In this document: piece by piece, positions 4,195 to 64,000 of the stretch | Position numbering within the stretch: the stretch's first letter is position 1 | Layout: every line of letters starts with the position of its first letter | Virus record (IMG/VR): IMGVR_UViG_3300031949_000004 | Span: 94,224-158,223 of that record | Reading direction: 5' to 3' (one strand) | DNA: 64,000 bases | Source of the DNA: a virus | Translations under genes and position numbers: made by a program | Notes under the pieces: model-generated | Told to the model about the DNA's origin: nothing | What the model saw: the letters and a program-made list of their open reading frames with translations, nothing else | Database searches by the model: none

Positions 4195-4442
4195 TGACCA
4201 CCGAGCAGTTGATGGCATTCGTGATCAAGGTTTCCGATGAACACGCGGGTGTGGCGGTGGGGCTCTCGGAAGCCGTTTCTCGCATTCCGGTACAGCGGCT
4301 CATGGAGATCGTCGACGGGTTGGGAGTTCGGGGACAAGAGCTATATGACCTCTACGGTCTGTGGCTCCGGGCAGACGACAAACGATTCGAGCAGAACCCG
4401 TCGTTCGCGACGTGGTTGCAAACCTTGAACGTGGGGCAATGA
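4195..4442 (+). CDS. hypothetical protein
   Basis: Internal ATG of frame 4017-4442 (MTTEQLMAFVIKV...). Confidence 0.4.
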
Positions 4443-4834
4443 CCATGACACGAGGAATTCGCGGTGAGACTCACGATGCTCCACCTGAAAGGATCGTGGT
4501 TCGGGGCGTGTGGCGGGTTCGCAAGGTCTCACGCTTCGAGGCGATGTACTGGTACGATCATCCAACCTCGTTTTTTAGCTTCCAGGCCGAGGTCGAGGCT
4601 CGCCGCGAATCTTCACGCGATACTTGCGGCTTCTGGTTGACCGTCTATGCCAAGCCTGCATTTCTGCTCGGTGACGGGGCCGGCGCGTCTCAGGGCAACT
4701 GGTGCCGCGTGGAGCCTCCCGACGATTTCTTCGACAACAACACCAACAACATCGGCGCCCTGGAACGGCTCTTCCAACGCAAGATTGTCGAGGAAGCCAA
4801 GCGTTTCCTCAAGCGACAGGCAGCAATTCTCTAG
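4439..4834 (+). CDS. hypothetical protein
   Basis: ATGA overlap with the upstream stop. 131 aa. Confidence 0.45.
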   Translation: MTMTRGIRGETHDAPPERIVVRGVWRVRKVSRFEAMYWYDHPTSFFSFQAEVEARRESSRDTCGFWLTVYAKPAFLLGDGAGASQGNWCRVEPPDDFFDNNTNNIGALERLFQRKIVEEAKRFLKRQAAIL

Positions 4835-4845
4835 GCAAGGACATC

Positions 4846-5085
4846 ATGACAGACATCACCCCCAAGTATATGAGTTCGGCTCCCCGGCAAGGATCCGCAG
4901 TGGTTCCCATGTACTCGGCCGTAACTCCAGGTCGTCCTCCACAGGAATCGCCACCTGCCCCAATCACGGCCGTCGAGATGACCTACAAGGTCGTCAAGAA
5001 ACTCTTGGCCGAGCTGCCGCCCGCTGAACAGGCCGAATGCTTGCGGCGGCTCTCCAAGGACATCTTCGAGAGTGTGACCACATGA
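4846..5085 (+). CDS. hypothetical protein
   Basis: 79-aa ORF (MTDITPKY...). Confidence 0.35.
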   Translation: MTDITPKYMSSAPRQGSAVVPMYSAVTPGRPPQESPPAPITAVEMTYKVVKKLLAELPPAEQAECLRRLSKDIFESVTT

Positions 5086-39955: not shown

Positions 39956-40570
39956 ATGCCTCGACTCGAACCACACGCCGGAATGAAAACACCCTGGGGC
40001 CGGGCCGACAACGTCCACAAGCTGGTCGAAGGGATCTGGTTCGTGGGCACCCCTGGCCATGGTGGGCTCAAGGTCTCCGCAGCCTTGAACAAGAAGATCC
40101 CCGAAACCGTGCGCGCGGACGGCGGCTGGTACGAGGAAGATCTGGCCTACAACTGGGTCGTGGTCTTCTTCCCCGAGCTTGTCGAACGCAACGTCGTGCA
40201 GGGCACCGTCGAGGACGCGCACACCACCTTGCGCAACTGGTTCCCCAACGAATACGAACGCGTCTTCGGCCTCGCGCTCGATGCTTCGCAGAGCCGAGTT
40301 CGCCGGGAAGATCTGTTCCGGGCGGCCCACGGCAACGATTGGATCGTCATCGCCGCCTGGGGCGACTGGCACCAAAGCGTACCCAAGGGCATGGTGGGTG
40401 TCTGCTGCCAGCCGGCACACCTCGCCCGGAGGCGCGGCGCCCCCGAGCGATACTTCCTGGTGCCGAAAGCCGACTACGATAGCCAGGAACTCAAAACACC
40501 GATCGGCTTCATCTGCGATCCTCCCCCGCGACCTGGTGAGCCCTACGAAGAGATCGACAAGATCTCCTGA
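39956..40570 (+). CDS. hypothetical protein
   Basis: 204-aa ORF (WFVGTPGHGG...). Confidence 0.45.
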   Translation: MPRLEPHAGMKTPWGRADNVHKLVEGIWFVGTPGHGGLKVSAALNKKIPETVRADGGWYEEDLAYNWVVVFFPELVERNVVQGTVEDAHTTLRNWFPNEYERVFGLALDASQSRVRREDLFRAAHGNDWIVIAAWGDWHQSVPKGMVGVCCQPAHLARRRGAPERYFLVPKADYDSQELKTPIGFICDPPPRPGEPYEEIDKIS

Positions 40571-40572
40571 CC

Positions 40573-40947
40573 ATGTACGCACCCCGCGCCTACTACGTCA
40601 TCGTTCGCGGCAAGCGTCACCGCGCCTATGGCCCCTACCTGTCTCGCGACGATGCTGCTCGCGCCGGCTACTTCGCGAAGAGCGTCGCGAAACGCGATCT
40701 GTGCGCCGTGGGACACGACCCCGGACGATGGGCGGTCTTCTTCGGAATCGGCGTGAACGAATACGACGACCGCGAAATCGAATACCTGTCGCGACATCCC
40801 GAAGAAGCTCTGCCCGGCTGCAAATCCTTCGAGGTTCATTCTCCCGAAAAGCTTCCCATGGATGCCTCGTGGAAAGTGTTTCAAGGCGAATACGGGACCG
40901 ATGCCCTGATTCGTTGCCTCGAACGCGACTGGCAACTGGTGCGCTGA
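40573..40947 (+). CDS. hypothetical protein
   Basis: 124-aa ORF. Confidence 0.4.
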   Translation: MYAPRAYYVIVRGKRHRAYGPYLSRDDAARAGYFAKSVAKRDLCAVGHDPGRWAVFFGIGVNEYDDREIEYLSRHPEEALPGCKSFEVHSPEKLPMDASWKVFQGEYGTDALIRCLERDWQLVR

Positions 40948-40961
40948 CCGGAATCCACCCT

Positions 40962-41645
40962 ATGCCAATACCCAAAATCCTACATCAGATCTGGCTTGGA
41001 AAGGCAACCCAGCATCCCAAGTTCATCGAATGGCGTGCGCGCTGGCGGGAGCTGCATCCCGACTGGCAGCTCAAGCTCTGGACAGGACCGGCTAACGCCA
41101 TCGAAATCTTCTCGGGCACCGAACGCGTCGCAACCCGGTACCCCGAGCTGATTGCCGGGTCGAGTTACATCGGGCAATGCGCCAACATCTTCCGTCTGGA
41201 GATCTTGATGGCCCAGGGAGGAATTTACATCGACACCGATGTTGAGCCTCGCCGCAACATCTCAGCCATCATCGACGGCCACGAAACCGTAGTCTCGCGC
41301 ATGTGGAGCTTGGAGCCCGACGGCAGCGTCCGGCACAGCAACGCCTTCCTAGGTGCGGCGCCGGGACACCCGTTCATCGCAGAGGCCCTGGCGGGCCTGC
41401 CACAAAGAGATCCGGCCGTGCGCACGTCGATGGGCGATCCCTATATCACAATGCTGATGCATAAGCCTCCGGGTGGTCGCTCAGACGTGCATGTCATCGA
41501 CCGCGACCACTTCCTGTTCTTCAAGGCACAGTGGAAAATTCTCAACGTAAACTTTCACCCGAGCCCCGAAGTCTACGCCATCCACCACTGGTCCCACGAA
41601 TGGCATCCGACGATCTTCAACAACCCTCACGCTGAGCCTGCATAG
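40962..41645 (+). CDS. glycosyltransferase, GT32 / DXD family (second copy)
   Basis: Internal start MPIPKILHQIWLG of the long frame 40179-41645. IYIDTDVE is the DXD motif. Confidence 0.55.
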   Translation: MPIPKILHQIWLGKATQHPKFIEWRARWRELHPDWQLKLWTGPANAIEIFSGTERVATRYPELIAGSSYIGQCANIFRLEILMAQGGIYIDTDVEPRRNISAIIDGHETVVSRMWSLEPDGSVRHSNAFLGAAPGHPFIAEALAGLPQRDPAVRTSMGDPYITMLMHKPPGGRSDVHVIDRDHFLFFKAQWKILNVNFHPSPEVYAIHHWSHEWHPTIFNNPHAEPA

Positions 41646-41652
41646 ACGCACC

Positions 41653-42345
41653 ATGACCTCCCACGTCCTTGGCCCGTTTGCATTCACCTTCGAGGACAAG
41701 GTGATCTCGGGCGACTACTACGGTACCGGCTACCTGGAAGAGCTACGCGAAGCTGCCACGCGGGCTCTTGCTTCCGGGGGATCCATCCTGGAATGGGGCA
41801 GCGGCATTTCCACGCTTATGCTCGCCAACCTCGTCAACACCTTGAACGAACGTCCGCTTGTCACACCTCGCATGCGCGCCCAGATCGTGACTATCGACAA
41901 CAACGAGCCCTACCTCCACGCCGTGCTCGCCGCCATGCCCGACAAGCTGAACGTGCTCGCCGTAGCTTGCAGCCTCAGCGGTCCTTGCCATGACCAGCTC
42001 GACCTCCCACTTGGCTACGCCACCGTGCCCTTCGCCCTGGCTCATCCCGCCCCCTGGAAGCTCATCGTAATCGATGGACGCCGCCGCATGGAATGCGCGC
42101 TCATGGCCGCCATGCTGGCCAACGACGACACCATCATCATGCTGCACGACTACCGGCGTTTGCGCTACCAGCCCGTGCTTGGGCTCTACGACATCGTTGC
42201 CGACCAACCACAGTACCGCGCAATGCGCGTGAGCACCAAGACCCGTCTGACCCTGGCACAAGGCCGAACCGCGATGTTCGACGCGCATCTCGATGATGAT
42301 CTACGTGCCAAGGCGCTCGCTGGCATCAAGATCTTGTGCGGCTGA
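41653..42345 (+). CDS. putative class I SAM-dependent methyltransferase-like protein
   Basis: ILEWGSGIST is a GxGxG motif. LIVIDGRRR...MLHDY is Methyltransf_24-like. Confidence 0.4.
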   Translation: MTSHVLGPFAFTFEDKVISGDYYGTGYLEELREAATRALASGGSILEWGSGISTLMLANLVNTLNERPLVTPRMRAQIVTIDNNEPYLHAVLAAMPDKLNVLAVACSLSGPCHDQLDLPLGYATVPFALAHPAPWKLIVIDGRRRMECALMAAMLANDDTIIMLHDYRRLRYQPVLGLYDIVADQPQYRAMRVSTKTRLTLAQGRTAMFDAHLDDDLRAKALAGIKILCG

Positions 42346-42355
42346 CCGGGCCATC

Positions 42356-43000
42356 TCAGGCAACGGCCGAGACATTGGCAACGAAAGTTGAGAATCCTGC
42401 CCGCAGCTTCTTGGCTTCATGGGCATTATGCGAGCACAGATCCAGGAAGACCGTGCTCTTTGCAATCTGTCCCAGGAGCACGATCAAGTCATCGCGCAGA
42501 TAGGGAGCAACCAACCTCATCCTGGTCTTCCTGCCAAGCAACAAACCCAGCTTCGCCACGTCCCGGCGATCTTTTTCACCTTTGCTTGAATGTCCCCGGC
42601 TCTGGAATGCCTCCAGCTTGAGCACGAGCAAGTGCTCCAGGCATGCCACCTTGACCTCGCCGTTCCCATAGGCAATTGCAGCCGCGTGCGCGAAGACCTC
42701 GTCATAGGGCACGACGAGCTGGTTCAACCGCTCGACATACACGTCGAACTCGACGCCATCGACGATCATCTGGTGCTTGGCAAGGCGAGGAGAAGGCACG
42801 ATTTCCTCCATATCCTTCAGGGTGCCGTAATCAGGGAAGGAGATCATAAAGTCGGCATCATGGCTCGTCTCCAGGGATATCATCCTGGATGCCCGGCGCA
42901 TCGCATGAAGGTACACGGCGACCCCACCGATGAAAACCACGCCCGGCAAGTTGTTGCCGATACCCTGGCAGAGATCCAAGATCTTGGCAAACGTGCTCAT
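42356..43000 (-). CDS. nucleotidyltransferase (AbiEii/DUF6036-like Pol-beta fold)
   Basis: VFIGGVAVYLH...SHDADFMI matches the GG.A...DxDF motif. Confidence 0.5.
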   Translation of the reverse strand: MSTFAKILDLCQGIGNNLPGVVFIGGVAVYLHAMRRASRMISLETSHDADFMISFPDYGTLKDMEEIVPSPRLAKHQMIVDGVEFDVYVERLNQLVVPYDEVFAHAAAIAYGNGEVKVACLEHLLVLKLEAFQSRGHSSKGEKDRRDVAKLGLLLGRKTRMRLVAPYLRDDLIVLLGQIAKSTVFLDLCSHNAHEAKKLRAGFSTFVANVSAVA

Positions 43001-43012
43001 GCCTGGTAGAAT

Positions 43013-43453
43013 ATGTCACAAGTGACGAAAATGCTACCAGCAATCCTGCCCGAGGTAACGATCACGGCCAAGGCGCCGAATGGACAACGCGAGACCATCT
43101 TCTCCCTTTGCCAAGCCGGAGGCATCGAATGCAAGGTCACGGGACCAGCCGCCTTACGCCACATCCACCTCCTCGCTGGCCAGCTAGCCGTGGCTCGGGA
43201 GCCAGGATCCTTGGGTCTCGTTGCCATCACCATTCCCGAAGAGGATCCAAAGCGGCGCGCGATCTTGGCTCTAGGGATCTTGGCCTATGCGGTGTTCGAT
43301 TATGCAGCTCGTGAATCCCTGCGCGGCAATCCCGAAGCAGCATTTGCCCTTCCCCTCGGCAGGCCGCGAAAAGCTCGGCCCTTGAATGGCGCCGAACGAC
43401 AACGGCTCTGGCGTACCAGGCACGGAATCCATTCGAGCTTGCCAAGTCCATGA
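43013..43453 (+). CDS. hypothetical protein with C-terminal basic Arg-rich motif
   Basis: GRPRKARPLNGAERQRLWRTRHG resembles the GG.ARA..LS.ERRREIARKA..ARW motif. Transcribed divergently from the 42356-43000 NTase gene. The palindrome GTCACAAGTGAC lies at the junction. Confidence 0.35.
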   Translation: MSQVTKMLPAILPEVTITAKAPNGQRETIFSLCQAGGIECKVTGPAALRHIHLLAGQLAVAREPGSLGLVAITIPEEDPKRRAILALGILAYAVFDYAARESLRGNPEAAFALPLGRPRKARPLNGAERQRLWRTRHGIHSSLPSP

Positions 43454-43502
43454 CCACTGCCGAACGCTTGACCAAGCGTGCGTTAAATGATACGCTTAAA
43501 TC

Positions 43503-44216
43503 ATGGATCACACCACTGTCACCACGCCTGCCGGATTCATGCGCGCCGTCGATCAGGCAAGAATGGCACGCAACCTCTCCAAAGCGGAAGTATCCAGAAG
43601 GTGCCACATGCGCCCGGAAGCGGTCCGGCGGCTCCTGTCCGGAAGTGCTCCCAACCCCACATTATCGAACGTGCTCAGCCTCCTTGGATCCCTCGACCTC
43701 GGCCTCCAGCTCAGGCCCTTGGCGACAAACAACGAAAATGCAAAACACGTCCTCATGGGCTGGCTAGCGCATTACGGGGCACCCCTTTATGGACCGCAAA
43801 ATCCCGGCAATCCCCCACCACCCGAAGTCGTGCTGGCAGACGCCCTCGTCCTAGCGCGCGGAAGCGGCTCGGTCGCCCGTGCTCTGCCGATGGCCTTCCT
43901 TGGCGCCCGCAAGAAGCTCGATTTCGATCGACTTGCCAAGGAAGCTGAAAGCCGGGGACAAGTCCGCACGCTCGGCTTCTTCCTTGATCTGTCAGCCGAG
44001 CTTTCCGGCCACCAAACCTTTGCAACGGCTGCCAGCAAGCTCCACGTCCATCCCGCCGCCACCATGACACGCCCTATACAGTTCTTTAAGCCAACCACGG
44101 CCCTGGAGCGGAAGCTGGCCGAAGGCCGCACGCCCAAAGTCGCCCGGAAGTGGGGTTTCCGCATGAACATGGACATGGACAGCTTCACGAGCATGTTCAG
44201 GAAAGTCGCTACATGA
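43503..44216 (+). CDS. XRE-type HTH protein with C-terminal domain (AbiEi-like antitoxin candidate)
   Basis: HTH ARNLSKAEVSRRCHMRPEAVRRLLSG. C-terminus ...ERKLAEGRTPKVARKWG. Lies directly upstream of an NTase gene. Confidence 0.5.
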   Translation: MDHTTVTTPAGFMRAVDQARMARNLSKAEVSRRCHMRPEAVRRLLSGSAPNPTLSNVLSLLGSLDLGLQLRPLATNNENAKHVLMGWLAHYGAPLYGPQNPGNPPPPEVVLADALVLARGSGSVARALPMAFLGARKKLDFDRLAKEAESRGQVRTLGFFLDLSAELSGHQTFATAASKLHVHPAATMTRPIQFFKPTTALERKLAEGRTPKVARKWGFRMNMDMDSFTSMFRKVAT

Positions 44217-44262
44217 ACAGGGACAAGGCCAGTCTTGCAAGCCTGATCAAGAAGGCAAGGCC

Positions 44263-44802
44263 ATGAAGACCTACGGCCGCGACGCGCTGCTGGGATTCCT
44301 TACTGAGATCGACAGGTTGCTGGAAAAGCCCGCCGACATGGAGATCATCGGCGGTGCCGCCGCTCTCCTGGTCTACGGTGCCACGAGCCCGACCAAGGAC
44401 ATCGACAGCTTCCTGCCCATCCCTGATGAGATCCTGCGCGCTGCCGCCGAAGTCAGGCGACGCATTCCTCTCGATCGCGCCACGGTGGCCGATCCTCCGT
44501 GGAACTACGAAGATCGCAGGCTACTGGTGGATCTGCCCTTCCACAGCCTGTCCATATGGGTGCCCGAGCGCCACGATCTCTTACTCATGAAGTCCATCAG
44601 ATCATCCCGGCACGACGACGAGGTCATCCAGGAGATGCACCAAGTCCAGCCGTTCGATCTGGAAACGATCGTGCATCGCTGGAACGAGGAGATAAGCCAA
44701 GCGATCGGCGACCACAGGATCCTGGATCAGAAGATCCAACTCATCATCGGGAAGCTGTTCGGCGATCCCGCCATGTCCCGCATCAAGCTCAAGCAGAAGT
44801 GA
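44263..44802 (+). CDS. nucleotidyltransferase (AbiEii/DUF6036-like)
   Basis: MEIIGGAAALLVYGATSPTKDIDSF. Confidence 0.5.
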   Translation: MKTYGRDALLGFLTEIDRLLEKPADMEIIGGAAALLVYGATSPTKDIDSFLPIPDEILRAAAEVRRRIPLDRATVADPPWNYEDRRLLVDLPFHSLSIWVPERHDLLLMKSIRSSRHDDEVIQEMHQVQPFDLETIVHRWNEEISQAIGDHRILDQKIQLIIGKLFGDPAMSRIKLKQK

Positions 44803-45034
44803 TACCCAGCAACCCCAAGACCTCGACCGCTTCGTTCTGCGCGGACTCGCTGGTCAGCATGGTCTGCAATCTATCGAACACCACATCGACCAGCATCTCA
44901 TATTCCGCCAACCCCGCGCTATCCCAGGCGCAGGGCAAACGCAGCTTCTCGCCGGCCTGCTTGCGCGTCTTCACGGCTTCCGTCATCGCCATGGCCAGAC
45001 GTGTGCGTATTTCGTCTCGTGAAAGCTTCGCCAT
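44789..45034 (-). CDS. small hypothetical protein downstream of the PcfJ-like gene
   Basis: Internal start MAKLSRDEIRTRL has a strong RBS GAGGAGG. Not called separately in the ORF track. Confidence 0.35.
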   Translation of the reverse strand: MAKLSRDEIRTRLAMAMTEAVKTRKQAGEKLRLPCAWDSAGLAEYEMLVDVVFDRLQTMLTSESAQNEAVEVLGLLGITSA

Positions 45035-45050: not shown

Positions 45051-46310
45051 CTAGGCACCAACCGTCGGGGCACCCGAAAGCCGGTTTTTCGCTGCCCACT
45101 CGCGCACAATCTGGATCTCTCGGGAAAGTGGCATGCGGTTGCACGGGCCGCGCACCTGGACGATGGTACCGCCAACCTTGCGCACCTCAATAGTGAGGCG
45201 CCGCCAGTGCCCGGTACTGTCCTCCTCGGTCACAACCCAAATCGAGCTGGCACCAGACGCGATGGTGGAAGCATAAGACGCGACACAGTGGTGCATCACC
45301 CGACCCTCCTCGACCAAATCTGCCCGGTTCAAAATCTCCCGGACATGCCAGATCTCCTTGCAGTGCTTGCCGGCGCGATTCCGATGCGTGCGATCGAGAT
45401 CATGTTTCAGATAGCCGCTCGGTTTGAAGGCCTTGGGCTCCCGCGACCAGATCTTCTCCTTGGCCAACTCGCGGTGCCACACCTCCATCGCTCGTTGCGT
45501 GGCCAGCACGCTCCGACCCTTCATGCCAAAAGACAGGTCGGTGGTATGACGATGATGCAGGTAATCAAGCAAGGGACCAACCTGCTCCATGGGTAGCATC
45601 GGGTTCCGACAGAACCATTCGATCACGCTCTGCCAGAACGTCTCCCAGTGTGTCGGCTGCAAGTCCCAGGCTCTCGTGCCCCGCCACGCGAGCCATAGGG
45701 CAGGGTTGCCGCCCGAGCCCAAGATCTGCGCCCGCCGCAAAGCCGACACGACACCAAGCCCCCCCGTGGTCGTCATGAAAATGTGCGCCATCTTGCGGGT
45801 GAGCGGAACGTCGATGAGCAGGGCCACGGGCGGCGGCACGACCTTCGACGGCACCACGGCCATGAGACTACCGCCCGCAGCCAGGTGAATCGCCAGGTTT
45901 TGAAGACGGGTCGCATTCGCATAGGCAGGATCCCCGACCTTGTCGTAGGCAAACGCGGTCCAGAGGAAATCCGGCATCCTGTACCTGGCGAAAAGGTGCG
46001 AAGCCAGAGAGCGGAAGACCGTATCAAAACCCTTGCCCCTCGGAGACCAATCTTCCAGCTTCCGGATCCACTGATCGCGATGCAGGTACAAATTGTGAAG
46101 GCTATCGACGTGCTCCTCGCGTTCGAGCAACCTCGGCGCCCGCTTGCGCACGATCTCGACAACCGGTGTCGAGCAGATCTCGGGACCGATATTCGATCGC
46201 GCCAGGGCCTCGGCGATCTCCCGCTCCTTCTGCGCGGTCACGGCTTGCTTGGCGAGGATCTCCCGGCGCCTCTGCGCCTTGAACCAGTTCGAGTAGTGAT
46301 TACTGCTCAT
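45051..46310 (-). CDS. PcfJ-like protein
   Basis: VMHHCVASYASTIASGASSIWVVTEE...LTIEV resembles the PcfJ domain HHC..Y motif. The MSSNHY start abuts the upstream stop. Confidence 0.5.
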   Translation of the reverse strand: MSSNHYSNWFKAQRRREILAKQAVTAQKEREIAEALARSNIGPEICSTPVVEIVRKRAPRLLEREEHVDSLHNLYLHRDQWIRKLEDWSPRGKGFDTVFRSLASHLFARYRMPDFLWTAFAYDKVGDPAYANATRLQNLAIHLAAGGSLMAVVPSKVVPPPVALLIDVPLTRKMAHIFMTTTGGLGVVSALRRAQILGSGGNPALWLAWRGTRAWDLQPTHWETFWQSVIEWFCRNPMLPMEQVGPLLDYLHHRHTTDLSFGMKGRSVLATQRAMEVWHRELAKEKIWSREPKAFKPSGYLKHDLDRTHRNRAGKHCKEIWHVREILNRADLVEEGRVMHHCVASYASTIASGASSIWVVTEEDSTGHWRRLTIEVRKVGGTIVQVRGPCNRMPLSREIQIVREWAAKNRLSGAPTVGA

Positions 46311-46705
46311 GAACCCCCCTGCGCCATCGAACGATTCTTGTTCCAAGAACGCCGCCAAGCGGATTCCAGGACGGGCTCATGCGTCTCGAACCAAAACACC
46401 ACCCGTTCACCCTGGAACCTGGCCGCCAGCTCCACAAGCCTCTTTCCAGCTTCGGAGCGTTCCGTTTTCTTGTACGGCATCACGCCTTCACGAACCTTGG
46501 AAAGCATATGCCTGAACTCTTCCACCGTCATGCTGTCTTTGGCGTTGTTGCAATCCTTGCAAGATGGCAGACAGTTGTCAATGAAGTCGCAACCACCATT
46601 TGAAAGCGAATGAACATGGTCAACAGTCTTACCCTTGCCGATACCACAGTAACCACATCGACCAAAAAACATCGCCAGGATTTCCCTTCGCATGCAGTCG
46701 TTCAT
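46307..46705 (-). CDS. HNH endonuclease
   Basis: GRCGYCG...VDHVHSLSNGGCDFIDNCLPSCKDCNNAK is an HNH motif. RBS GGGGGAAG. Lower GC. An alternative longer start lies at 46894. Confidence 0.6.
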   Translation of the reverse strand: MNDCMRREILAMFFGRCGYCGIGKGKTVDHVHSLSNGGCDFIDNCLPSCKDCNNAKDSMTVEEFRHMLSKVREGVMPYKKTERSEAGKRLVELAARFQGERVVFWFETHEPVLESAWRRSWNKNRSMAQGGS

Positions 46706-46916
46706 GCATACTTCCCCCAAAGATGTTTCCACACACGTCGCAGCCAACGTCTTATGACTGTGAAACGCATATGTCGACGCGAAAGCATGATACCCTTCTC
46801 GAATCTCCTGTCTCGACGGCGCGCTCGCTTGTAGTGCTTTCGCAATCTCCTGTACGTATCCCGATTGTATAACTTCCAACCCCACCAGCCCCACGGATCC
46901 TTACTCCGATTGCCCA

Positions 46917-60814: not shown

Positions 60815-61297
60815 TCACCTGCCGGAATCATAACGACGATTGGCGGCTAACGTGGCTTTCAAAGTGGGAAGATGCGCGCGATCTTTGGCACGATTGGCTG
60901 CTCGCTTGCTGGCGATAACCCTGTCAAGAGGCAAGACCTTGAGAAGCAAACCTTCCACATCCATCTCAACGGCGTCCTCGTATTCTCGTGCAAAAGACTT
61001 CAAGCCGCTGCACGATCTGACAATATCGATCCTTTCCAGCTTTTCCCCTGTCAGCACCGGAGAATCCGCGCGCCACGCAAACATGCTACCCACAGCACGT
61101 GCCGCCTGGTCCAATACCCCATCAGAAGTTGATTCAAACCAGAGATCGATGTCCTGGGTGCCGATATTGGCACCCTGCAAATCGGCCGCCGACATGCCCA
61201 CAACCATGAACCGGGAGCCATTCTCGATCAAAATGCGCAGGAAATCGTGCTCTTCATCCGTGAGCGGCGTGTCCTTTATGAGTGGCGAGCGAGACAT
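60815..61297 (-). CDS. nucleotidyltransferase (DUF6036/AbiEii-like core)
   Basis: FMVVGMSAADLQGANIGTQDIDLWF. Overlaps the upstream partner gene by 22 nt. Confidence 0.5.
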   Translation of the reverse strand: MSRSPLIKDTPLTDEEHDFLRILIENGSRFMVVGMSAADLQGANIGTQDIDLWFESTSDGVLDQAARAVGSMFAWRADSPVLTGEKLERIDIVRSCSGLKSFAREYEDAVEMDVEGLLLKVLPLDRVIASKRAANRAKDRAHLPTLKATLAANRRYDSGR

Positions 61298-61572
61298 CTC
61301 GACAACCTTTCTGCTGGCGTCAACGTCAAACTGTAAAGCGAGTGCTCGACATCGCCAGCATCCACCCGGAAACGCGCTGCCACTTCTCCGGCAACCTTAC
61401 AACGATATACACGATCAGCACGCAACCGTCGCCTTGAATCCCATCGCGCAGCAATGGCCTTACGCGCAATCTCCCTGCGCCGCTCGCTGGAAAGCAAAGC
61501 AGCCCTTGCCGGTCCTCCCCGGAGTCCTCCCAAGCGGCCCAAAGCCACGGCATTGGCATTCTTCATGCCCAC
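61276..61572 (-). CDS. small basic partner protein of the NTase (antitoxin-like)
   Basis: GRLGGLRGGPARAALLSSERRREIARKAIAARW. Forms an operon with 60815-61297. Confidence 0.45.
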   Translation of the reverse strand: MGMKNANAVALGRLGGLRGGPARAALLSSERRREIARKAIAARWDSRRRLRADRVYRCKVAGEVAARFRVDAGDVEHSLYSLTLTPAERLSRCLARHS

Positions 61573-61664: not shown

Positions 61665-62171
61665 ATGGTGTACGTTCAAAGATTGACGATCACATCAAAA
61701 CAGCGTACATTCAAGACCATGCAAACTATGTGCGCCACCCACCTCCGAAAGAAACTCTTCGACACGCTCGCTCGGATTGCGGAAAACCGCGAGCCCGTGG
61801 AAATCACCATCGACAATCGCTCCATCGCCGCCCTCGTCCCTTCCACGGGACTTCCCCCAACCAGACGCAAGCCACTCCTCGATCTCGACGCCATCTCGGC
61901 ATTCTGCCGCAAGCATCAAGTAAAGAGCTTCGCCCTCTTCGGATCCATCCTGCGCGACGACTTCAACGAAGAGAGCGATGTGGATGTGCTCCTCGATGTC
62001 GATGGCCGGAGTCTCGAATTCCACGAATCGTGCTCCATGATCGACGAATTGGAGACCATGTTCGGTCGCAAAGTCGACATGGCCACGGATTCCGATCTCA
62101 AACGCGCCAATCGTTACCGCCGGGAATCCATCCAATCCGCCAGCCAGGAGATTTATCGTGTCACCGCGTGA
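61665..62171 (+). CDS. minimal nucleotidyltransferase (MNT) with Phd/YefM-like N-terminal extension
   Basis: LFGSILRDDFNEESDVDVLLD is a GS...DxD motif. The N-terminus RKKLFDTLARIAENREPVEITIDNRSIAALVP is Phd-like. An alternative start lies at 61719. Confidence 0.6.
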   Translation: MVYVQRLTITSKQRTFKTMQTMCATHLRKKLFDTLARIAENREPVEITIDNRSIAALVPSTGLPPTRRKPLLDLDAISAFCRKHQVKSFALFGSILRDDFNEESDVDVLLDVDGRSLEFHESCSMIDELETMFGRKVDMATDSDLKRANRYRRESIQSASQEIYRVTA

Positions 62172-62502
62172 AGGAGGAGATCTCGCGTGGATCTCCGACA
62201 TCCTGGAAGCAGCAGCCGCCATCATCAACGGTACCAACGGTCTGCGGCTTACGGAGTTCATAGGCTTACCCCAACTCACATACGCCGGAATCCTCCTGAA
62301 GCTCCAGATCATCGGCGAAGCATCGAAGAACCTCACGGCCAAAACAAAGACCAAGTACCCAGATATCAAATGGTCAAACCTAGCAAAGCTGCGCGACTTC
62401 ATCGCCCATCATTACTGGCGAGCAGATCACGTGCTGATCTGGAACCTCATCCAGAAAGAACTGCCGACCCTAATCGACAAATTGCAGATCCCCGACGAAT
62501 GA
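62158..62502 (+). CDS. HepT/DUF86 HEPN-domain toxin
   Basis: LQIIGEASKNL...KWSNLAKLRDFIAHHYWRADHVLIW contains the R-x4-6-H HEPN motif. The GTG start overlaps the MNT stop by 14 nt, with AGGAG upstream. Confidence 0.7.
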   Translation: MSPREGGDLAWISDILEAAAAIINGTNGLRLTEFIGLPQLTYAGILLKLQIIGEASKNLTAKTKTKYPDIKWSNLAKLRDFIAHHYWRADHVLIWNLIQKELPTLIDKLQIPDE

Positions 62503-62515
62503 AACGGTGACCACC

Positions 62516-63079
62516 ATGGCATACGATCTCCTTTTTCGCCGCGAGACCGACTCGGACTACTCCATCCACCCCGAGGGCACCGAACCCACCACGCAACCTC
62601 TACCCATCGAATTCTCAGCCGTCGAGCGCAAGACCCTGGCACAGCTCGAACCCGCCACCCGCGTCTTCGCAATCAACGTGATCGGGTGGGCACGCAGCAA
62701 GGGCATCAAGGCTCGCCTCACTTCCACCGCCATCTACACCACTGAAGACGTCGCCAAACACCACAAGGAAGGTCGCAGCAGCATCGCGCCTGGCCGCTTA
62801 TCCTGGCACAGCGTCGGTCGCGCCTTCCACATCACCTTGCCCAAGCTGCCTCCCTACAACAAGATCGACGAGGAGTCGTACAAGCGCATCGGTGCCTATG
62901 CACGCAGCCAGGGCGGCGAATGGCTCGGCGACAAGCCCATCCGCACCACCAAAGGGATCGTCTACGACACCGCGCACTTCGAGTACCACCCAGGATTCGA
63001 CATCGCCACCTACCGCCAGTTGCCGCTCGCCGCCGCCGAGATGAAAGCTGCGCTACAGCGCCGCAAGCTCTACGGCTAG
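62516..63079 (+). CDS. MAYDLL-family protein with LAS/M15-like peptidase motifs (endolysin or virion peptidase candidate)
   Basis: SWHSVGRAFHI parallels SxHxxGxAxD, and DTAHFEYH parallels DxxH. The MAYDLLFRR N-terminus is shared with four other proteins. Confidence 0.4.
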   Translation: MAYDLLFRRETDSDYSIHPEGTEPTTQPLPIEFSAVERKTLAQLEPATRVFAINVIGWARSKGIKARLTSTAIYTTEDVAKHHKEGRSSIAPGRLSWHSVGRAFHITLPKLPPYNKIDEESYKRIGAYARSQGGEWLGDKPIRTTKGIVYDTAHFEYHPGFDIATYRQLPLAAAEMKAALQRRKLYG

Positions 63080-63092
63080 AAAGGATCCTCGC

Positions 63093-63563
63093 ATGGCCTA
63101 CGATCTCCTCTCCGGCAAGGTGACATCCGCCAACTTCGCCCTGTCCGGCATCGGCGACGACGATCCGCTCCTCTGGACCTCGGCTTCCGCCAAGGCCGAG
63201 TTTGCACGCATTCGCACCATGCTCGACACCGTCAACCTCGAAATGACCCAGGCCGTGAAAGATCAGAAGATCTCCAGCGACGAGTGGAAGCAATGGTTCT
63301 CGCTCTACAAGACCGGACACAAGCTCACCAGCCAATCGACCTGGTTCTCTGTCTCCAAAGGCGACATCATCGTGGCCCGCAAAATCGAACAGAACGCCAA
63401 AGGCTGGCATGATCTCGTGCAGTCCCGAGGTGGCAAGGGCATCGGCCCCAAGGGACAGTTCCGCAAGGACGAGCCAACCGGCGGCAGTTGGTTCTGGCCG
63501 ATCGTCGGTGGCACCCTGCTCGTCGGCGCGGGCCTCATGGTCACCAAGAAAGTCATCAAGTGA
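63093..63563 (+). CDS. MAYDLL-family protein with C-terminal TM (holin/spanin-like)
   Basis: MAYDLLSGKVTSANFA...SWFWPIVGGTLLVGAGLMVTKKVIK. Paralogue of 30070-30264. Confidence 0.45.
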   Translation: MAYDLLSGKVTSANFALSGIGDDDPLLWTSASAKAEFARIRTMLDTVNLEMTQAVKDQKISSDEWKQWFSLYKTGHKLTSQSTWFSVSKGDIIVARKIEQNAKGWHDLVQSRGGKGIGPKGQFRKDEPTGGSWFWPIVGGTLLVGAGLMVTKKVIK

Positions 63564-63589: not shown

Positions 63590-64000
63590 ATGGCTAATAA
63601 AAAAAGATTCCTGAATCCTCAAGACGTGGAAGACGCGATCGTCGAAGTTGCGCGAATTGCCCAAAAAGAAAACATCTCCGTTGCTCTCATCGGCGGCGTA
63701 GCCATGGAGATCTTCGGCTCCGATCGCATGACCAAAGATATCGACTTCGTTTGCTCGGCAATGCCATCTTCCGGAATCATTCCCAAACGCACCCTGTCCT
63801 TCGGAGGCATCTCAGGATCTACAAAACATGGACACCCCGTCGATCTGGTGGTCCGCAACGATGTCTACGAAGCACTGTATGACGAAGCCCTTGCCCAAGC
63901 CATCGAGCACGAAGATCTGCCAGTCAAGCTCGTGACACCCCCCTACCTCGCCGCCATGAAGATGGCCGCCGGACGCGACAAAGACGAAATGGATCTCAAG
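63590..64000 (+). CDS. nucleotidyltransferase (DUF6036/AbiEii-like core), 3' partial
   Basis: VALIGGVAMEIFGSDRMTKDIDFV. The frame is open to the window end. Confidence 0.45.
   Translation, partial: MANKKRFLNPQDVEDAIVEVARIAQKENISVALIGGVAMEIFGSDRMTKDIDFVCSAMPSSGIIPKRTLSFGGISGSTKHGHPVDLVVRNDVYEALYDEALAQAIEHEDLPVKLVTPPYLAAMKMAAGRDKDEMDLK

Follow-up and report, generated by a model that had tools for sequence, protein, structure and literature searches.

The window analysed here is a stretch of 64,000 nucleotides from the IMG/VR virus record IMGVR_UViG_3300031949_000004, and the locus of interest within it holds four open reading frames. The genes pA (42356-43000, minus strand, 214 amino acids) and pB (43031-43453, plus strand, 140 amino acids) are transcribed divergently, and pC (43503-44216, 237 amino acids) and pD (44263-44802, 179 amino acids) follow on the plus strand. 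All four frames are present, and each is a real gene with a conserved family of homologs. Judged by sequence comparison, the region is two independent, mutually unrelated and evolutionarily conserved pairs, pA-pB and pC-pD, rather than one island of paralogs; aligning the pA and pD profiles with hhalign gives a probability of 0.9%, on which a common family was rejected. Each pair appears to combine a small nucleotidyltransferase (NTase) of the MenT/AbiEii style with its own DNA-binding partner. A preliminary description of the locus had two NTases flanking two candidate partner genes. The NTases and the partners hold, but the layout does not, as pB goes with pA and pC with pD. Comparison with related loci shows that the side-by-side placing of the two pairs is peculiar to this contig, and nucleotide searches with the 2.4-kb region returned no match among GenBank phages or PLSDB plasmids. 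Neither pair has been described before; literature searches on 'DUF6036' and on 'PDC-M21' found nothing.

pA is a Pol-beta-type NTase of an unannotated family with more than 340 homologs, none of which carries a Pfam domain. Its motif I is FIGG (G25 G26), followed by S46 and D48-A-D50, and its further motifs are E84/D86/E90 and K128...K140 G141 x K143 D144 xx D147. The family alignment shows G25, D48 and D50 as invariant, together with the motif-III-like stretch (K128, K140, G141, K143, D144 and D147), while G26, E84, D86 and E90 are conserved at 90% or more. S46 is also invariant (S-H-D-A-D) and, lying two residues ahead of the DxD, is likely to be the phosphoacceptor of pA. Against Pfam, pA matches neither AbiEii (PF08843) nor DUF6036; sub-threshold AbiEii matches occur in 7 of 31 pA relatives, the best with E=0.0039. 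pA also weakly matches DUF2204 and PDC-M21B (the latter with E=0.0074 in PADLOC-DB v2), and its relatives give AbiEii and PDC-M21B matches in PADLOC, all of them weak. A tblastn search of pA against phages gave no match, and a scan of IMG/VR found no relative.

pD, by comparison, matches PF19502 (DUF6036) over residues 13-149, scoring 55.1 bits where the cut-off is 23.6 (E=1e-14). PF19502 is found in 54 of its 57 listed relatives, the other three being fragments of 99-140 amino acids. Its motifs are IGG (G30 G31), T44-K-D46-I-D48, E83 D84 and K110..R113..D118. Within the family, G30, G31, D46, E83 and D84 are invariant, as are the motif-III-like residues K110, R113 and D118, and D48 is conserved at 90% or more. 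T44 (T-K-D-I-D) is invariant two residues ahead of the DxD and, by analogy with characterised enzymes, is probably the phosphoacceptor. No match to pD was found by tblastn against plasmids or by an IMG/VR scan with an exact pD 51-mer, and IMG/VR yielded only one relative, at 26% identity. The preliminary description had taken both proteins for small Pol-beta-type NTases sharing the core GG.A.......T.DIDF. The assignment is borne out by intact catalysis motifs, with hGG and DxD invariant in the pA and pD families. The literal string fits neither protein, since the stretch reads GGVAVYLH...SHDADF in pA and GGAAALLVYGATSPTKDIDSF in pD; what they have in common is hGG...[ST]xDxD. An alignment check of the hG[GS] and [DE]x[DE] residues likewise finds hGG, DxD and a further acidic pair kept in both families, and K..R..D is invariant besides.

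The link between pA and pB is strongly conserved. pB adjoins pA in every related locus with room for it, usually in divergent orientation with about 30 bp between the genes, and such neighbours occur in Myxococcales, Chloroflexota, Burkholderiaceae and Saccharibacteria MAGs and in metagenomes. Distant relatives in Chloroflexota, Saccharibacteria and Rhizobium are co-directional, with the NTase first and a partner of about 140 amino acids second; a Rhizobium leguminosarum megaplasmid carries an adjacent pair of this kind. Although the longest reading frame for pB begins at 43013, the likely start is the ATG at 43031, because homolog alignments and the only promoter-like site place it there. The divergence noted in the preliminary description is retained, and the 12-bp gap (43001-43012) that went with a start at 43013 is rejected in favour of a control region of 30 bp (43001-43030). 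The palindrome said to sit in the shorter gap, GTCACAAGTGAC, lies at 43015-43026, inside the reading frame as earlier delimited and within the 30-bp region.

This control region appears to serve both genes. The predicted pB promoter (42984-43012, plus strand) combines a -35 TTGGCA at 42984-42989, within pA codons 4-6, with a 17-nt spacer and an extended -10, TGgTAGAAT, at 43004-43012; it matches at 10 of 12 positions plus the TG, stands alone as a sigma-70-like site within 42200-45000 and would start transcription near 43019-43020. Closer relatives place the -10 hexamer 18 nt ahead of the pB ATG. In the orientation of pA, the relatives share the consensus cat-TTTC-GTNAC-N1-2-GTNAC-(N0-1)-TATAAT-N7-ATG; among 29 distinct intergenic sequences, 25 have TAnnnT 5-9 nt ahead of the ATG and 20 have the strict double GTNAC. 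The pA -10 in the window is a degenerate TATTCT (43013 down to 43008, minus strand), and its spacing of 7 nt from the pA ATG suggests a leaderless pA mRNA. The -10 box abutting the candidate operator is predicted to read as a promoter on both strands.

The operator-like element itself, GTCAC-AA-GTGAC (43015-43026), consists of two GTNAC half-sites, with the shared -10 region on one side and the start codon of pB on the other; its 5-bp arms, GTCAC and GTGAC, surround AA, and the palindrome is imperfect. The window contains GTNACNNGTNAC a single time, where 0.69 occurrences are expected, which is not significant alone. It is also found exactly once, at the equivalent position beside pA, in 20 related loci, so the element is more than chance. 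Co-directional loci keep it upstream of pA as TTTCGTAAC..GTTACGAAA, and the operator and promoter layout persists down to about 40% protein identity in both gene arrangements. An inverted repeat at 43003-43040 does not form one large palindrome with the GTCAC element, as their centres lie one base apart and pB codons account for the outer arms.

pB, which the ENA gene caller missed, has 115 relatives among representatives of 50%-identity clusters. Its N-terminal alpha/beta domain, predicted with confidence as a compact structure, is followed by GRPRK, which resembles an AT-hook, and by a C-terminal helix of basic character (AERQRLWR). The basic tail GRPRKARPLNGAERQRLWR, noted earlier at the end of the 43013-43453 frame, is present and is the best-conserved part of the family; C27, C34, R43, Y86, D90 and an ARES stretch are near-invariant. 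No match was found for pB in Pfam or PADLOC at E up to 1, for its family profile in the PDB, or for its predicted structure among PDB folds, the AbiEi-like fold included, and it contains no helix-turn-helix (HTH). A HEPN domain was rejected for want of a conserved Rx4-6H and of any Pfam or fold match. In a distant relative from Rhizobium, the tail is not detectable and the central LAY..D..ARE helix is retained.

pC, described earlier as an XRE-type HTH protein with a C-terminal domain directly upstream of the second NTase gene, is just that. Its HTH_3 match in Pfam covers residues 18-66 and places it in the XRE family, and profile and structure comparisons put this HTH closest to those of the HipB and HigA antitoxins. 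The C-terminal domain (about 77-237) is conserved and mostly helical, with no known family or fold found; it was also rejected as a HEPN domain, having neither a conserved Rx4-6H nor a Pfam or fold match. A PDB profile search with the pC family recovers the HTH only, and neither pC nor pD has a match in PADLOC-DB v2 at E up to 1. Across the 67 pC relatives, the DNA-binding domain is exchangeable and the C-terminal domain is kept. Each NTase has, as had been proposed, a conserved partner with DNA-binding features, pB for pA and pC for pD. Just upstream of pC lies an inverted repeat, GCGT-N8-ACGC (43480-43495), which may serve the HTH of pC as an operator; at the same place, relatives show by eye GTAyC-N6-GGTAC overlapping a -10-like TACACT.

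The pC and pD homolog lists have 18 longest contigs of matching size in common, and in loci L002, L003/L004, L058, L059 and L060-62 pC immediately precedes pD and overlaps it by 4 bp. These relatives, with their overlap and upstream palindrome, have the layout of a bicistronic autoregulated operon, whereas the two genes in the window are 46 bp apart; pA-pB is divergent in most loci and co-directional only in distant relatives. Junction comparison shows that the spacer is an insertion relative to homologous loci, filled by a mini-ORF of 17 codons (44213-44266, plus strand) that connects the stop codon of pC to the start codon of pD through an ATGA overlap at either end. In one lineage, a Ser/Thr protein kinase gene occupies the pC slot upstream of the DUF6036 gene. 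The DUF6036 protein linked to it has DxN in place of DxD and may for that reason be inactive.

Both pairs resemble AbiE and MenAT3/MenAT4 (a COG5340 antitoxin plus a DUF1814 NTase toxin) in joining a DNA-binding partner to a Pol-beta-fold NTase in two genes, in the hGG, DxD and K..R..D residues of pA and pD, and in a palindromic candidate operator at the promoter. pC-pD also shares their antitoxin-then-toxin order and, in its relatives, translational coupling. The Ser/Thr two residues before the DxD is, in AbiE and MenAT, the residue at which the antitoxin, by inducing autophosphorylation, turns the toxin off (PMC11375011; bioRxiv 10.64898/2026.01.19.700257). The 7.4-kDa MenA1 triggers this reaction at T39 of MenT1, next to D41xD43 (PMC11375011, PMC10435456); the MenT1 phosphoacceptor motif is T39-R-D41-x-D43, its S/T is reported to be strictly conserved across the superfamily (PMC11375011), and T65 has been described in AbiEii (bioRxiv 10.64898/2026.01.19.700257). 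Unlike those systems, pA and pD measure about 180-214 amino acids and fall below PF08843, pD being a DUF6036 protein and pA of no family; pC joins an XRE HTH to a C-terminal domain that is unrelated, pB lacks an HTH altogether, and pA and pB are divergently transcribed. Of the AbiEi/AbiEii organisation suggested at the outset, the gene order of pC-pD remains, but membership of the AbiE family falls away: neither NTase reaches the PF08843 gathering threshold, and neither partner is of the COG5340/AbiEi type. A DUF6036 assignment holds for pD (55.1 bits) and not for pA. PDB profile searches with the pA and pD families give no match, to MenT and AbiEii or otherwise, and it is the motifs and weak matches that suggest a relationship with the characterised MenT/AbiEii toxins.

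Other known systems share single traits with these pairs. MenAT1 likewise has a small NTase toxin (MenT1 has about 200 amino acids) with an unrelated, non-COG5340 partner, which illustrates that diverse partners can control such NTases. Unlike the present pairs, MenA1 is tiny and has no DNA-binding domain, the MenAT1 genes are co-directional, and the PDB profile searches detect no sequence similarity to pA or pD. SanaTA/RlegTA/SdenTA and PygAT encode a DUF1814- or COG2253-type NTase upstream of a regulator or antitoxin, the toxin-first order of distant pA-pB relatives, whose partner has about 140 amino acids; SanaA has 136 (bioRxiv 10.64898/2026.01.19.700257). They are set apart here by the absence of a PADLOC match for pB, by the purely sub-threshold matches of pA and by a pB model with no AbiEi-like fold match. 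HepT/MntA, a type VII HEPN/MNT system, also pairs a minimal NTase with a small partner under control by covalent modification, but there the NTase, a member of NTP_transf_2, acts as the antitoxin, and neither pB nor the pC C-terminal domain has a HEPN match or a conserved Rx4-6H. The XRE-HTH autorepressors of HipBA and HigBA resemble pC in the DNA-binding domain only; their toxin partners and neutralising domains are unrelated.

Three more NTases at 60.8-64.0 kb bring the number in the window to five, as the preliminary description had counted. The third small NTase (60815-61297, minus strand, 160 amino acids) has T-Q-D-I-D and K..R.KD and is distantly DUF6036-like. A 98-residue ORF at 61276-61572 was rejected as its confirmed partner: gene callers do not call it, and it has no Pfam match at E up to 0.1 and no tblastn match in plasmids. 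The fifth NTase (63590-64000, plus strand; 181 amino acids in full) is cut by the window end and shows GG...T-K-D-I-D-F and K..GRDKD..D. Between them, MntA (61719-62171, plus strand; NTP_transf_2, PF01909, E=1.2e-11) overlaps by 14 nt a HepT HEPN RNase gene (62158-62502, plus strand; PF01934, E=7.5e-17) whose product has RDFIAH as its Rx4H motif. By its domain matches, 61719-62502 is an ordinary HepT/MntA pair with MntA as the antitoxin. The phage-like character ascribed to the genome is not confirmed. PHROG and Pfam scans of 20 large window ORFs found no capsid, portal or terminase, and we do not endorse the label for that reason; tblastn of three large ORFs against phages gave no match either. 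The element also encodes a PHROG 'RNA-binding protein', a Dda-like helicase, methyltransferases and glycosyltransferases, and neighbours of the related loci include RelE/MqsA, HEPN/MNT, HicA, AbiE, transposase and integrase genes.

Our preferred reading, to which we give a probability of roughly 55%, is that two mobile two-gene cassettes lie side by side, each a toxin-antitoxin module in the style of MenAT and AbiE. By analogy with MenT and AbiEii, pA and pD would be the growth-arresting components, adding nucleotides to tRNA 3' ends and so blocking translation. pB and pC would each bind the operator at the promoter of their own cassette and repress it, a role that for pB is suggested by its basic tail and AT-hook-like motif; they would also bind the NTase and silence it, probably through autophosphorylation of S46 in pA and T44 in pD. 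The kinase gene in the pC slot fits control by phosphorylation. pC-pD would act as a classical antitoxin-then-toxin operon. At pA-pB, one AT-rich -10 would serve both strands, giving a probably leaderless pA mRNA one way and a short-leader pB mRNA the other, and one protein bound at the double GTNAC operator could shut off both genes, since the operator sits beside the shared -10. Counting against this reading, divergent transcription of toxin and antitoxin is atypical for protein toxin-antitoxin systems and gives up fixed operon co-expression, the pC-pD spacer in the window is 46 bp, and the -10 of pA is degenerate. Both NTases also stay below the AbiEii threshold, and PADLOC has no model that matches pB, pC or pD.

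A more far-reaching version, which we put forward tentatively, takes pA-pB as an unrecognised class of NTase toxin-antitoxin or defence system, with a new NTase family, a partner of new fold, a shared bidirectional -10 and a double GTNAC operator. The orientation of RNA polymerase and a single repressor would then set the toxin-to-antitoxin ratio, and to our knowledge no operon-type toxin-antitoxin system uses such control logic. pA-pB, pC-pD and the three further NTases would form a MenT-like battery wielded by the element in competition between mobile elements.

Instead of toxin-antitoxin modules, the pairs could be regulated accessory enzymes belonging to the mobile element, repairing or modifying, for example, the 3' ends of tRNA or RNA, or altering a small molecule, as a counter to host defences, with pB and pC as plain dedicated regulators of transcription. 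The five NTases cluster in an element that encodes RNA- and DNA-metabolism proteins as well. Phages are known to repair tRNA 3' ends, and divergent enzyme-regulator pairs with a common operator are frequent in bacteria; tRNA 3' ends are also the substrate of MenT-type enzymes (PMC7450476, PMC10435456). We consider this unlikely, because bacterial chromosomes, MAGs and a megaplasmid carry the pairs as well, next to other toxin-antitoxin genes and transposases, a pattern that marks selfish addiction or defence cassettes and not a function specific to phages. In relatives pC and pD are coupled by their 4-bp overlap, both partners have a conserved domain that does not bind DNA, and the phosphoacceptor is invariant, all of which points to a direct protein-protein relationship.

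The ordinary HepT/MntA pair in the same window, with its NTase as antitoxin, raises the question of whether the roles of pA and pB are reversed, with pB as a toxin, built from an N-terminal domain of novel fold and a tail for nucleic-acid binding, that pA inactivates by nucleotidylylation. pB is unlike any known antitoxin, and C27, C34, R43, Y86, D90 and ARES in its compact modelled domain could form an active site. pA, however, keeps the MenT-type S-x-D-x-D and K..R..KD..D, and its weak matches are to AbiEii toxin models, none being to MntA or NTP_transf_2. Where one partner has a likely DNA-binding tail and a conserved operator lies alongside, that partner as a rule serves as antitoxin and autoregulator, and the Rhizobium relative with no detectable tail, in keeping LAY..D..ARE, suits a binding interface better than an enzyme. 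Such a reversal is accordingly rated as decidedly improbable. Phage-encoded antitoxin mimics are known in general, and the pairs lie on a large mobile, possibly viral, element; the earlier idea of decoy antitoxins or anti-defence proteins against host AbiE or MenAT is nonetheless very hard to sustain, since an antitoxin alone would suffice, each pair has two intact genes that are strictly co-inherited, cellular genomes included, with invariant catalytic residues, and pB and pC are unlike AbiEi or any known MenA.

If the preferred reading of two MenAT/AbiE-style cassettes is correct, the locus bears on the MenT/AbiEii-type NTases, which are abundant as toxins and as effectors of phage defence. 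The pA-pB region, with its predicted bidirectional promoter and operator, is compact and strongly conserved and would be a tractable model for the balance between toxin and antidote, and a cultured Rhizobium leguminosarum strain with the megaplasmid homolog makes experiments feasible. Recent work suggests that partner-induced autophosphorylation controls all such NTases, despite mutually unrelated partners, and the two cassettes offer a direct test of that generality. The range of unrelated partners would grow by two types, one an XRE-HTH protein whose C-terminal domain is new and the other a 140-residue protein with an AT-hook-like tail and no known fold, and two NTase lineages would join that fall outside the DUF1814 model and yet keep the phosphoacceptor.

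All four open reading frames named in the preliminary description are present, at exactly the coordinates it gave: the nucleotidyltransferase (NTase) pA (42356-43000, minus strand, 214 aa), the pB frame (43013-43453, plus strand), pC (43503-44216, plus strand, 237 aa) and pD (44263-44802, plus strand, 179 aa). Their source is a large uncultivated contig (194 kb in JGI; 141 kb in ENA, ERZ27256953), and GC content is unremarkable throughout the region (0.57-0.62). pD is a Pfam DUF6036 NTase (E=1e-14), from a family for which a literature search found no paper. In pC, first-pass annotation shows an HTH_3 domain of XRE type (residues 18-66) and no further domain. pA gives only sub-threshold matches (DUF2204, E=0.065; PADLOC PDC-M21B, E=0.007), and pB has none in Pfam, PADLOC, NCBIfam or PHROGs. 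Although the ENA gene caller missed it, pB is a genuine gene.

Homolog searches divide these genes into two cassettes. They returned 57 homologs of pD and 67 of pC, with 18 identical longest-contig sizes shared by the two lists. In every independent locus fetched (L002, L003/L004, L058, L059 and L060-62), the DUF6036 gene is directly preceded by a pC homolog of 237-274 aa, whose end it overlaps by 4 bp. The pA family counts more than 340 relatives, none containing a Pfam domain; that of pB counts 115 among 50%-identity cluster representatives. Wherever a fetched locus has room for it, a profile detects a pB copy beside the pA homolog, across Myxococcales, Chloroflexota, Burkholderiaceae and Saccharibacteria MAGs and 35 metagenome contigs. 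Closer relatives keep the two genes divergent, 29-62 bp apart; in distant ones pB follows pA co-directionally. Profile-profile comparison of pA with pD gives a probability of 0.9%, with nothing in common beyond the GG turn, and among the loci compared the cassettes are adjacent only in this contig. The linkage in homolog loci and the unrelatedness of pA and pD indicate that pB pairs with pA and pC with pD. A single island of paralogs is ruled out by these separate conserved pairings and the 0.9% probability.

A Rhizobium leguminosarum megaplasmid carries, after a pA homolog, an ORF with a weak match to the pB profile (E=7.7e-6) that covers the central helix. This locus, on plasmid pRlX5 of strain TP16 (NZ_CP140867.1, 157598-159000), provides a pA homolog from a cultured organism (37% identity). 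Its co-directional, weakly pB-like ORF keeps the LAY..D..ARE helix with no obvious GRPRK tail, and its database record carries no annotation.

The Pol-beta catalytic set is kept without exception in both NTase families. pA has FIGG (G25, G26), S46-H-D48-A-D50, E84/D86/E90 and K128...K140-G-x-K143-D144-xx-D147, while pD has IGG (G30, G31), T44-K-D46-I-D48, E83-D84 and K110..R113..D118. The preliminary description had named loss of hG[GS] or DxD as evidence against its reading; both motifs are present in the two families, and with the catalytic set intact that reading withstands the check. The Ser/Thr two residues before DxD is also invariant in both families, at the same position as T39 of MenT1 (T39-R40-D41-x-D43), where antitoxin-induced autophosphorylation turns the toxin off (PMC11375011). 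This position is reported to be strictly conserved over the DUF1814 superfamily (PMC11375011), and T65 is its equivalent in AbiEii (bioRxiv 10.64898/2026.01.19.700257).

The best-supported reading, with a probability of roughly 0.55, is that the cassettes are two MenAT/AbiE-like toxin-antitoxin modules. The NTase would be the toxin in each, with tRNA as its putative target. The partner would act as autorepressor and neutraliser, probably by inducing NTase autophosphorylation at S46 in pA or T44 in pD. The analysis establishes the linkage, the motifs, the operator and the HTH; binding of DNA by pB, the positions of the transcription starts, toxicity, the tRNA target and phosphorylation are inferences. 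Both cassettes would work in the manner of AbiE and MenAT, yet membership fails: there is no PF08843 match and no COG5340 partner, neither pB nor pC being an AbiEi/COG5340 protein, and pA-pB is divergent. The earlier proposal of an AbiE-like island is borne out as to the kind of system, while its family assignment and its layout as one island give way to two cassettes outside AbiE. Homology to characterised toxins is weak: the AbiEii model is touched by 7 of 31 pA relatives (best E=0.004), a few pA relatives touch the PADLOC AbiEii or PDC-M21B models, and PDB profile searches with the pA and pD families found neither MenT nor AbiEii. An unlikely alternative is that the NTases are regulated accessory or counter-defence enzymes.

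The AlphaFold model of pC is confident (pLDDT 91), and a PDB sequence-profile search recovers HigA (E=4e-5) and also HipB. Its C-terminal domain of about 160 aa is mostly helical and is the best-conserved region of the family, with no Pfam or fold match. In distant family members the XRE domain is swapped for a winged helix (HTH_IclR, HTH_20 or MarR_2) and the C-terminal domain is retained, as expected if the latter were NTase-directed and the N-terminal part an exchangeable DNA-binding module. In the pC homolog of L002, a related 153-kb contig (P0090, 5180-6004), a tandem repeat of the peptide SLRLE separates the HTH from the C-terminal domain. In the very confident pB model (pLDDT 93.6), a small alpha/beta domain is followed by an extended stretch that bears the AT-hook-like GRPRK, and the C-terminus is a basic helix (AERQRLWR).

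The pA-pB control region depends on where pB begins. Alignments with many relatives begin at residue 7 of the long frame, and the family N-terminus reads M-x-x-P-x-F-x-P. The sole sigma-70-like site in 42200-45000 (TTGGCA-17-TGgTAGAAT, 42984-43012, plus strand) has its predicted transcription start near 43019, downstream of the ATG at 43013. On these grounds the probable pB start is placed at 43031, which leaves a 30-bp gap holding the palindrome at 43015-43026. The palindrome had been described as intergenic, which holds for this start and fails for one at 43013.

Comparison of 29 distinct intergenic sequences gives a consensus, reading toward pA, of cat-TTTC-GTNAC-N1-2-GTNAC-(N0-1)-TATAAT-N7-ATG, with the strict double GTNAC in 20 of them. 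A TAnnnT box lies 5-9 nt ahead of the pA ATG in 25 of the 29, a spacing that suggests a leaderless pA mRNA. The reverse complement of this AT-rich box, together with the conserved ACCAC that follows it, forms TGgTATTAT, an extended -10 located 18 nt ahead of the pB ATG. Because the same box reads as a -10 on both strands, transcription both ways appears to use a single -10 region, with the predicted operator alongside. GTNACNNGTNAC has a single copy in the window, where 0.69 would be expected, which alone is not significant; in each of 20 related loci exactly one copy occupies the equivalent position. Co-directional relatives retain the element in the form TTTCGTAAC..GTTACGAAA, between a TATAAT and the pA gene downstream. 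That the operator moves with its cassette between phyla implies that its binder is encoded there too; pB, which has an AT-hook and a basic helix, is the most evident candidate. Just past the pB stop, a 10-nt inverted repeat at 43461-43482 (CGAACGCTTG / CAAGCGTGCG, 90% complementary, no T-run) could form a hairpin between pB and pC.

Inspection by eye shows a palindrome in relatives of the second cassette, GTAyC-N6-GGTAC, that shares sequence with a -10-like TACACT, a few nucleotides ahead of the pC start; the window has GCGT-N8-ACGC at 43480-43495. Relatives have a direct 4-bp pC-pD overlap, whose place is taken here by a 47-bp insertion filled by a 17-codon mini-ORF (44213-44266, plus strand). 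Its ATGA overlaps with the pC stop and pD start may preserve translational coupling. In L055 (4199-5702; JGI Ga0265324_10000020, 172 kb, chromosome-like) and L056, a Ser/Thr protein kinase gene takes the place of pC directly before a DUF6036 homolog that has 51% identity to pD and DxN replacing DxD. A kinase gene in the pC slot accords with control by phosphorylation.

Relatives of both cassettes adjoin RelE/MqsA, HEPN/MNT, HicA, AbiE, transposase and integrase genes, surroundings usual for toxin-antitoxin and defence cassettes. The preliminary count of five NTases in the window was correct. Besides pA and pD, they include a 160-aa protein (60815-61297, minus strand) with T-Q-D-I-D, for which tblastn to a Fibrella plasmid gene shows a distant likeness to DUF6036. 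Its start is overlapped by a 98-aa ORF (61276-61572, minus strand) that gene callers did not call and that has no homolog found in plasmids. MntA belongs to an ordinary HepT/MntA (HEPN/MNT) module at 61719-62502 (plus strand), in which an NTP_transf_2 NTase and a HepT-like RNase with RDFIAH overlap by 14 nt. It is quite unlikely that pA and pB follow this HepT/MntA model, with their roles reversed. The fifth NTase (63590-64000, plus strand, continuing at L053 8498-9043; 181 aa) has T-K-D-I-D-F and a faint AbiEii match, and is cut by the window end; it and the 160-aa protein both show the T-x-D-x-D pattern seen in MenT1 and pD. The idea that the two cassettes are decoy antitoxins is very improbable.

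A 128-aa gene follows the fifth NTase (L053 9062-9448). A weakly M15-peptidase-like protein and, after it, one with an apparent C-terminal transmembrane segment (by eye), wedged between NTase modules at 62507-63563 (plus strand), are a possible lysis cassette. In L002, an unrelated 215-aa NTase (4205-5049, minus strand; T-Q-D-I-D, faint AbiEii match) occupies pA's position and is followed, with a 4-bp overlap, by a 66-aa gene, forming another NTase cassette beside the pC-pD pair.

The phage-like character first suggested for this genome was not confirmed. PHROG matches comprise DNA- and RNA-metabolism proteins only, 20 large ORFs scanned include no capsid, terminase or portal, and neither searches of GenBank phages nor IMG/VR scans for pA and for an exact stretch of pD gave matches. 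The flanks (39956-42345 and 45051-46894) encode a DUF7007 protein, a Gly_transf_sug glycosyltransferase, an HNH endonuclease, and methyltransferase-like and PcfJ-like proteins. PcfJ is characteristic of conjugative plasmids and adds doubt over the phage label; together with an SLT transglycosylase it would also fit a conjugative element. What gives the locus its value is a pair of undescribed NTase-partner families, together with a control region that is unusually compact and apparently bidirectional.
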